Shown here piece by piece: positions 55 through 2,199 of a DNA stretch of 32,635 nucleotides. The notes under the pieces were generated by a model, which saw only the letters and a list, made by a program, of their open reading frames with translations, did not search any database and was not told the DNA's origin. Position 1 is the stretch's first letter. Every line of letters starts with the position of its first letter. A program made the position numbers and the translations under genes. The stretch is from a virus: the UHGV virus genome UHGV-0186667; one strand, written 5' to 3'.

Positions 55-171
55 ACCATTTTTACACTAACGAAATCATATTTTTTCATTTTAAATCATG
101 ATGTTAGTGTTAATCTGTGTTTGCTTGTTTTACTTGTTTTTAGTGCTCTGCCGCCAAAGTGCCGCCATTTA

Positions 172-1198: not shown

Positions 1199-1831
1199 TC
1201 AAAGGCTCTTAATGATTTTCAGTGCGCGGCCTATTACCTTAATGTCATCCAGTTCGCACTCAAACGATGAATCATCCTGATGCACTACTAATCTGTTTCC
1301 CGGGAGTCGTGTCAATTTTACAATGCTTTTTATCCCGTCGATGTCCACTAACCACGTACCATTTACTGGTGGTGTTTGGTTGCGATCTATTAAATAAGAA
1401 TCACCAGAAGTAGTCACCAGCAGCAGGTTGCTTGAGTCTGAGGGGAGTATGCTGCTATCAATGATTGCTTTTCCAGCATCGACCAATAAACCACCGTTGA
1501 GAGTTGCCTTTTCAATTTCAGGAGATACAAGCTCAGAAAGAGGTTTAACCTTGCTGGGGTTCACGGAATTGATATTTTTTTTAGGGTCAATGTTTGAACC
1601 TGGCTCGCCCTGTCCGGTGGTTAGCCATAGTAAAGAAACTCCTGTTTCCAAGGCGCACTGAATCACCCATTCTGCGGGAAAGCTATCTCTTAAGTATCTG
1701 TTTGCCATAGTGCTTTTTGATGCACCTAAGTGATCGCAAAGTTGCTGTCTGGACTTGAAATCATAGGCTGCCATTAGTCTGTGGATAGCCTCTCTTCCCC
1801 CTGTATTCTCGCCAGCTTTTACCTGTATCAT
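1199..1831 (-). CDS. CI-type immunity repressor (phage 186 CI-like)
   Basis: 210-aa ORF divergent from apl/cII, with an N-terminal helix-turn-helix-like stretch (SRQQLCDHLGASKSTMANRYL). Start may be the internal Met at 1774. Confidence 0.65.
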   Translation of the reverse strand: MIQVKAGENTGGREAIHRLMAAYDFKSRQQLCDHLGASKSTMANRYLRDSFPAEWVIQCALETGVSLLWLTTGQGEPGSNIDPKKNINSVNPSKVKPLSELVSPEIEKATLNGGLLVDAGKAIIDSSILPSDSSNLLLVTTSGDSYLIDRNQTPPVNGTWLVDIDGIKSIVKLTRLPGNRLVVHQDDSSFECELDDIKVIGRALKIIKSL

Positions 1832-1843
1832 TTCTTAATCCTA

Positions 1844-1895
1844 TTGACGTATCAAATATTGGATCGTAGTATCTCGATGTATCAAATATTGAATC
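1844..1895. promoter_or_regulatory. Early rightward promoter with two direct-repeat operator copies
   Basis: TTGACG (1844-1849), 17-nt spacer, TAGTAT (1867-1872). Two 17-bp repeats, GTATCAAATATTGGATC (1849-1865) and GTATCAAATATTGAATC (1879-1895), 30 bp apart, each with internal dyad symmetry. Confidence 0.5.
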
Positions 1896-1950
1896 TAATA
1901 AAACAAGATAAAACTACATAAACCAAACCTTAATCGAGAGATACTGCACT

Positions 1951-2199
1951 ATGAGCAACGACATTTCAATTCGTGTACCAAAAGTGATGGCGACACCTGC
2001 AGAGTTCGCGGAATGGGAAGGCCGCTCTCGCGGTTCGGTATATCAAATGATTCATAATGGTAAACTCGCTAAGTTTTTGGAAAGAAAGGAAAAACCGAAA
2101 GACAGAGTATGTATACGTTACCTTGAGTACAAAAAGGAACAAGTCAGGAAAAACATGGGCCAATCCAATTTCAACTTTAATGTCATCGTTGGTGACTAA
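1951..2199 (+). CDS. Apl/Cox-like excisionase and early regulator
   Basis: 82-aa ORF, first gene of the rightward early operon and divergent from the repressor, as in P2 cox and 186 apl. Confidence 0.55.
   Translation: MSNDISIRVPKVMATPAEFAEWEGRSRGSVYQMIHNGKLAKFLERKEKPKDRVCIRYLEYKKEQVRKNMGQSNFNFNVIVGD

Follow-up and report, generated by a model that had tools for sequence, protein, structure and literature searches.

Which protein reads the two nearly identical repeats in the 119-bp interval (positions 1832–1950) between a leftward repressor gene and a rightward excisionase gene, and what kind of genetic switch do they serve? The interval lies in a 32,635-nucleotide stretch of viral DNA, the whole of which is referred to here as the window. 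A preliminary description of this DNA proposed that the repeats are direct-repeat operators, bound by the repressor encoded at 1199–1831 at the lysis-lysogeny switch. We estimate a probability of about 0.8 that the interval is the lysis-lysogeny switch of a 186-type prophage (Fels-2/SopEPhi/SEN8 group, Peduoviridae), in which the repressor CI, bound at the two repeats (hereafter O1 and O2), would silence the early lytic promoter pR. The repeats themselves most likely serve as two binding sites that allow a 186-type CI to shut off that promoter. The locus is an ordinary member of a well-known kind of genetic switch, the understanding of which it leaves unchanged. Its closest phage records are Klebsiella Kp4845-2 (96.7%), Salmonella SEN8 and SopEPhi, and Yersinia MLG42, and the stretch comprising cI and the switch is present in 90 of 5,426 complete E. 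coli genomes. The same immunity type occurs in phages or prophages of Klebsiella, Salmonella, Citrobacter, Enterobacter, Raoultella, Tatumella, and Yersinia, including SopEPhi. Known operators would allow mutually immune prophages to be predicted.

The CI repressor and its gene neighborhood

The cI gene (1199–1831, minus strand) encodes an immunity repressor of 210 aa that belongs to the phage 186 CI family and consists of an N-terminal helix-turn-helix domain (Pfam Phage_CI_repr, residues 14–77, E = 5.6e-31), a linker, and a C-terminal oligomerization domain (Phage_CI_C, residues 105–204, E = 4e-28). BLASTP matched it to 186 CI (33% identity, E = 3e-35), and matches were also obtained to the PDB entries 2FJR (E = 2.1e-26) and 2FKD (E = 7.7e-13). 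The 2FJR structure represents a full-length 186 CI mutant that stops at dimers (PMC3675496). It differs from 2FKD by K in place of E in the motif WLVDI(E/K)G, and the CI of the window has an acidic residue (D) at this position, which is equivalent to E146 of 186. Support for a seven-dimer wheel, which this CI may form by analogy with 186, consists of the C-terminal domain homology and this acidic residue. Alignment places about 16 additional residues in its linker relative to 186 CI; a longer linker has been recorded previously for the CI proteins of SopEPhi and Fels-2 (PMC3448106).

The ORF map shows the divergent operons of a 186-type switch, with cI and int directed leftward (the integrase gene lies left of cI), and apl, cII, fil, and the following genes directed rightward. 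The first gene of the pR operon, apl (1951–2199, plus strand), encodes an 82-aa Cox/Apl-like excisionase and repressor (PHROG 6912, excisionase; PHROG 575, Cox-like excisionase and repressor) that is 29% identical to 186 Apl. To its right are cII, whose product (Pfam Phage_CP76) is 70% identical to 186 CII, and then DUF5347, DUF2732, and TraR-type genes.

Repeats and promoters in the cI–apl interval

The two repeats are the 17-mers GTATCAAATATTGGATC (O1, 1849–1865) and GTATCAAATATTGAATC (O2, 1879–1895), which are identical except for one base (G/A at position 14) and whose starts are offset by 30 bp. Their likeness extends beyond the 17-mer, as 18 of 20 bases match when 1846–1865 is compared with 1876–1895, and the region from 1844 to 1895 reads TTGACGTATCAAATATTGGATCGTAGTATCTCGATGTATCAAATATTGAATC. 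No further match to the 17-mer was found elsewhere in the 32.6-kb window with up to three mismatches allowed. When 119-bp sequences with the composition of the switch interval were simulated, a 16/17 direct repeat arose in 1 of 2,000 first-order Markov simulations and in 0 of 2,000 shuffles. The repeat pair given in the preliminary description (17 bp, one difference, 30-bp spacing) is hence borne out, with both copies located, unique in the window, and rarely matched by chance.

Both repeats contain a symmetric core, TCAA-N3-TTGR. The core of O1 (TCAA-ATA-TTGG, 1852–1862) belongs to a palindrome, ATCAAATATTGGAT, in which 12 of 14 positions pair, whereas that of O2 (TCAA-ATA-TTGA, 1882–1892) is perfectly symmetric. 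O1 fills the spacer of pR, and O2 covers roughly +1 to +17 of the same promoter, such that the predicted inverted-repeat operators lie in the spacer and over the start, with arms that are kept and centers that vary (see below). A putative third copy at 1825–1841, about 24 bp from O1, is weak, and we rejected it as an operator, because the start codon and ribosome-binding site of cI account for its sequence. It was among the candidates returned by a half-site weight-matrix scan (1558–1575, 1825–1841, and 1963–1979); the matrix was trained on the known sites, which it ranked top, and the scan therefore serves to list weak candidates only.

The promoter pR (1844–1872, plus strand) consists of TTGACG (1844–1849), a 17-bp spacer, and TAGTAT (1867–1872), a 9/12 match in a promoter scan. 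Two promoter-like sites were found in 1 kb versus 2.0 expected, so the match alone is not above chance. The position of pR and its −35 hexamer are, however, kept in almost all related switch regions and across CI types, and it is this position and conservation, rather than the consensus match, that support the promoter. The early promoter reading into apl and cII that was described previously is thus present where it was placed and overlaps the repeats. Predicted from sequence, pR would drive apl, cII, and the early operon from a start near 1879–1880. Its distance from the cI start codon is 12 bp, compared with 14 bp for the annotated pR of 186.

Facing pR is a probable lysogenic promoter for cI and int, pL (1969–1941, minus strand; TTGAAA 1969–1964, 17-bp spacer, CAGTAT 1946–1941), with about 55 bp between the two putative start sites. 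It is placed by its distances from the apl ATG, which equal those of the annotated 186 pL (−10 hexamer at −10 to −5, −35 hexamer at +14 to +19). Its consensus match is weak (3/6 for the −10), and the promoter scan therefore did not list it. A perfect 8-bp inverted repeat (AGTATCTC at 1868–1875 and GAGATACT at 1938–1945) coincides with the −10 regions and initial transcribed bases of pR and putative pL; the convergent promoters therefore have (T/C)AGTATCTC in common. Another minus-strand candidate for a cI promoter, TTGATA-17-AATGAT (1855 to 1827), was rejected because its start would fall downstream of the cI ATG. Its −35 lies within O1 and its −10 overlaps the cI start codon, and it is probably spurious.

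Between pR and pL, Tandem Repeats Finder detected 2.9 tandem copies of a 10-bp unit, ATAAAAC-NNN (1898–1926, plus strand; period 10), which are probably operators for the excisionase/repressor Apl. The Apl sites of 186 are direct repeats one helical turn apart (PMC7498355). The array occupies the same placement as the annotated Apl sites of 186. In addition, the 9-mer TAAAACAAG at position 1899 recurs beside the attachment site (124–132, minus strand), where it is adjoined by a near copy, AAAAACAAG (133–141), together forming a second group of Apl-type repeats at 124–141. The annotated 186 record places Apl binding in the pR–pL region as well as next to attP, toward int. Direct repeats one turn apart are hence found in the window at both of the places predicted for Apl sites in a 186-type switch, and such repeats persist in loci with other cI types. 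Beyond what was described before, the same interval probably holds a convergent pL and Apl-type repeats, and a distal site probably lies inside cI (see below).

A GATC occurs within O1 (1862–1865) at a fixed offset in the pR spacer (bases 13–16 of 17, one base before the −10). Comparison of the window with loci L002–L040 showed this tetranucleotide at the same offset in nearly all related switches, spanning at least eight CI/operator types with otherwise wholly different spacers. The exceptions are phage 186, which has none, and SopEPhi (GATTG). It could be a promoter element, belong to an outer operator arm common to these types (ATC...GAT), or make the promoter or operator sensitive to Dam. 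A tie to phage-encoded dam was discarded, as SopEPhi has dam yet lost the GATC, and nothing relevant to Dam control of this promoter was found in the literature searched.

To follow the repeats among relatives, we compared 14 switch regions that share this CI type (82%–98% CI identity) and represent 12 distinct sequences that can be aligned without gaps; these sequences are related, and conservation counts among them are not independent events. Across the 12 sequences, O1 differs at two columns only, one being its central base and the other a base changed in SopEPhi. Far more variation is seen in O2, where the arms, TCAA and TTGA, persist but the central triplet (ATA, TTA, CTT, CTC, or ATG) and the outer flanks (GTATC, AGTTC, TGTTC, or CTGTC) change. 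Fixed arms with a variable center and flanks are the pattern expected of an inverted-repeat operator read by a symmetric dimer.

Presence of the core also follows the repressor. All 13 loci with a CI at least 82% identical contain it, 11 with two exact copies and 2 with one exact and one degenerate copy, while Apl identity in these loci ranges from 67% to 100%. Among loci with other CI types, the core was found in 1 of 17 (as a single copy), with Apl identities of 67%–77%; in these 17 loci, the −35 and the pL region are unaltered, and Apl-type repeats are still present. Moreover, locus L006 encodes an Apl 96% identical to that of the window and is without any copy of the core. The core thus co-occurs with CI type and not with Apl similarity, and the repeats therefore belong with cI rather than apl. 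With regard to the modular structure of the region, homology to RE2010, Cartapus, and SE479_1PHIH2, which have other cI types, starts at about 1937, just before the pL −10. This places the module boundary for the RE2010/Cartapus CI type to the right of the Apl-type repeats. In type II loci, homology reaches further left, into the Apl repeats. The L006 record (CP019275.1, E. coli p13P477T-2) is a circular 37-kb "plasmid" that corresponds to a whole phage of this family, with frameshifts in int, cI, and fil, and may reflect an assembly error or a defective episomal phage.

A second CI type (56%–66% identical; L005, L006, L013–L018) has the same predicted recognition helix as the CI of the window, SKSTMANRYLRD (CI residues 38–49; gene at 1199–1831, minus strand). 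Despite the identical helix, the sequence at the O1 position is different, and specificity is therefore not explained by the recognition helix alone. These loci keep one TCAA-N3-TTGA-like dyad about 5 bp nearer the −10 (e.g., TTCAAGGTTTGAA in L013), and partial cross-recognition between the two CI types is possible.

Several other explanations of the repeats were weighed against this pattern. The identity of O1 and O2 beyond the core (18/20 bases), which includes the asymmetric flanks GAYGTA and ATC, could mean that CI reads units of 17–20 bp as head-to-tail direct repeats, as do the C proteins of P2, WPhi, and P2 Hy dis, whose paired direct repeats lie 22–34 bp apart (PMC1904268). We regard this as improbable. 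The repressor here is a 210-aa protein of the 186 type rather than a C protein of about 100 aa, and 186 CI recognizes inverted repeats (PMC1904268). Furthermore, the asymmetric flanks of O2 vary in relatives where the symmetric arms stay, and the third copy, in cI, has the symmetric core alone in common. Somewhat less probable still is that O1 alone operates and O2, contributing little, is the decaying remnant of a 30-bp tandem duplication of promoter and operator. Positions 1844–1873 and 1874–1903 do align at 21 of 30 bases, including a degenerate −35-like TCGATG, and O2 is far more variable than O1 among relatives. That variation is not random, however, in that the TCAA and TTGA arms persist amid a changed center and flanks, and in other CI types, too, the dyad in the spacer is followed about 30 bp downstream by another dyad of different sequence.

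Readings in which a protein other than CI binds the repeats fare worse. TATCAANNNNTTG resembles the IHF consensus WATCAANNNNTTR, and both TATCAAATATTGG and TATCAAATATTGA are one mismatch from the IHF core consensus; IHF acts at regulatory and attachment regions of the P2 family, and an IHF footprint is annotated at 186 attP. It is nevertheless very unlikely that the repeats are IHF sites that bend the switch DNA, given that WATCAA is lost from O2 of relatives (GTTCAA, GTTCCA, GTCCAA) while TTGA is kept, and that the motif vanishes when the cI type is swapped, with host range and the rest of the switch unchanged. The chance that they are Apl/Cox sites is equally slight. Excisionases typically bind direct repeats, and the repeats lie in the region of Apl action in 186. 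Against this, the nearly identical Apl of L006 is accompanied by no repeat, loci of the same CI type with an Apl only 67%–74% identical keep the repeats, and the 10-bp-period array with its copies at the attachment site fits Apl much better.

Binding of CI to O1 and O2 remains the preferred reading, and the switch would then operate as follows. pR would be read rightward into apl, cII, and the early genes, and a weaker convergent pL leftward into cI and int. In a lysogen, CI dimers would bind O1 and O2 through their helix-turn-helix domains and, positioned in the pR spacer and over the start, exclude RNA polymerase from pR. The 30-bp distance between centers is close to three helical turns and would put the dimers on roughly the same face of the DNA. 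This placement, together with a C-terminal oligomerization domain of the 186 type, makes cooperative binding likely, and we infer that the two dimers probably bind within one higher oligomer. With pR silenced, pL would be freed from interference, which would sustain cI expression. Apl made from pR probably binds the repeats at 1898–1926 and damps both promoters during induction. The assignment of the repressor to these repeats in the preliminary description thus stands as to the 186-type CI, the 186 layout, the co-occurrence with cI, and the operator-like conservation, with binding and cooperativity predicted from these features. The two operator copies also stand, though what CI recognizes is probably the inverted-repeat core TCAA-N3-TTGR rather than P2-style direct-repeat half-sites.

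Distal elements

An exact TCAANNNTTGA occurs twice in the window, in O2 and at 1587–1597 inside cI (TCAA-TGT-TTGA, within GGGTCAATGTTTGAACC, 1584–1600). The second occurrence, 270 bp to the left of O1 and 295 bp to the left of O2, is a candidate counterpart of the FL site of 186, which lies about 306 bp left of pR and within cI according to the annotated record. Given a background density of about 0.8 cores per 32.6 kb, we estimate the probability of a chance match at 200–400 bp on either side of pR as about 0.01. Among 15 type-I sequences, including the window, 11 have the exact core, and it is degenerate in L008, L009, and L035. In relatives, the Ser codon in this region remains TCA and the Ile/Val codon usually has T as its third base, whereas neighboring synonymous positions vary, and in L012 the core is kept though the encoded peptide differs (ESIIE versus GSNID). 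These patterns suggest that 1587–1597 is a probable distal CI site, which would add long-range help, possibly through looping, as FL does in 186. A second dyad-like element, GGTTCACGGAATTGATAT (TCA-N6-TGA, 1558–1575), lies 25 bp left of this core. It is conserved in relatives and encodes a conserved peptide, I-N-(S/F)-V-N, such that protein constraint may explain its conservation.

On the other side of the switch, an inverted repeat between apl and cII (AAGTTC-AATTATGA-GAACTT, 2199–2218) occupies the position homologous to FR of 186 and aligns base for base with the annotated FR, ATTCACTTTATGTGAAT. This dyad is kept in loci with other CI/operator types and shows no co-variation with CI type, so it travels with the apl–cII module. 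We therefore make no claim for it as a CI site. The half-sites for CII at the start of cII (ATGTTTG-N13-CAAACAT, 2232–2258), associated with the establishment promoter pE, are identical in sequence and spacing to the annotated CII site of 186.

The window ends (32,635) exactly at the stop codon of gene D, and the next gene in close relatives is a late-activator gene of the ogr/B type. We inspected the late-activator promoter in relatives (L037, 1900–1970; L026, 1465–1510; and L031). Upstream of ogr/B, LS4, SEN8, and SopEPhi carry TCAATATTGA or TTAATATTGA, plus GTATCATTA. Of these, TTAATATTGA is the SopEPhi variant and resembles the operator core with a center one base shorter. In 186, two sites mediate repression of the B promoter by CI. 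We do not count the motifs seen here as CI sites, as they are common to phages of another CI type and overlap the likely −35 and −10.

Comparison with known switches

In P2, WPhi, and P2 Hy dis, the C repressors bind two direct repeats that flank the −10 or −35, at spacings of 22–34 bp (PMC1904268). The switch described here resembles these in having repeats in direct orientation over the early promoter and convergent promoters in a P2-family phage. It differs in that P2 C, at about 100 aa, is without a CI_C domain and is not accompanied by a cII, and the P2-type repeats are 8–10 bp long with no internal symmetry. A P2 C-type switch was rejected for the window because of the 210-aa 186-type CI, the presence of cII, and the conserved symmetric core of each repeat. 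Among phages with the same immunity type (CI 85%–98% identical), we compared SopEPhi, SEN8, Yersinia vB_YpM_MLG42, and Klebsiella Kp4845-2. The intergenic region is 119 bp throughout, the positions of O1 and O2 match, and the switches differ by point substitutions only, mostly in the center and flanks of O2. None of these four records carries an operator annotation, and no paper mapping operators of the Fels-2/SopEPhi group was found in the literature searched. CI immunity classes have been described as little studied in a phylogenetic survey (PMC3448106).

The closest parallel is phage 186 (NC_001317, 23.0–23.5 kb). Its pR, 14 bp away from the start of cI, is covered by three CI sites, and there are seven Apl sites; FL lies in cI, FR separates apl from cII, and a CII site is found at the beginning of cII. 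Each of these elements has a counterpart or candidate counterpart here. The likeness includes the CI family and its domains, the gene order (int–cI and apl–cII–fil), a pR adjoining the cI start, a putative pL with its −35 inside the first apl codons at the same offsets, excisionase-type repeats spaced by 10 bp between the promoters and beside the attachment site, the inverted repeat between apl and cII, identical CII half-sites, and, within cI, a motif of the repressor type some 300 bp to the left. On the other hand, the low identity of CI (33%) and Apl (29%) to their 186 counterparts means that the phage is presumably heteroimmune to 186. The predicted operator, TCAA-N3-TTGR, is also unlike the 186 pR dyad TCTCTCAATTGGGAGA (read from sequence) and the sequence of FL and FR in 186 (ATTCAC-N5-GTGAAT). 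Our prophage lies in ssrA, whereas 186 uses a tRNA-Ile gene.

The arrangement of operators differs as well. Two strong sites 30 bp apart were found here, rather than the three sites about 21 bp apart, or two helical turns, at pR of 186. In 186, CI binds cooperatively as a wheel of seven dimers to pR operators spaced by two turns, and at the pB promoter it binds tightly to two A-type sites separated by 32 bp, distorting the DNA (PMC3675496); our use of A-type and B-type follows the annotated record and secondary descriptions. The pB arrangement, in which a CI of the 186 type meets two like operators spaced by about three helical turns, is similar to that of O1 and O2. In 186, however, pB is a late-activator promoter and the geometry is not the preferred one, whereas the three-turn pair is the main pR operator here.

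Operator spacing may be related to the length of the CI linker. O1- and O2-type sites are separated by 30 bp both in the window and in L019, which represents type III; in Cartapus and RE2010, of the Fels-2 type, our manual count on the sequence gives about 31 bp. Operators other than those of type I are readings of dyads and come from few types. The types with spacings of 30–31 bp have a CI of 210–214 aa, compared with 21 bp for the 192-aa CI of 186 and dyads 22 bp apart for a 187-aa type (L021). This suggests that linker length and operator spacing go together. We tentatively raise the possibility, itself rather doubtful, that a three-turn spacing (30–31 bp), and not the two-turn spacing of 186, is native to the long-linker CI proteins of the Fels-2/SopEPhi branch. 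If so, the N-terminal domains would reach further from the C-terminal ring, and the full oligomer would wrap roughly 200 bp rather than about 150 bp. The wheel model of 186 is at odds with the occupancy of about 180 bp measured by AFM and TPM (PMC3675496), and the long-linker repressors would then be a natural variant that bears on this mismatch. With its different operator number, spacing, and linker length, the switch described here offers a natural comparison for studies of 186.
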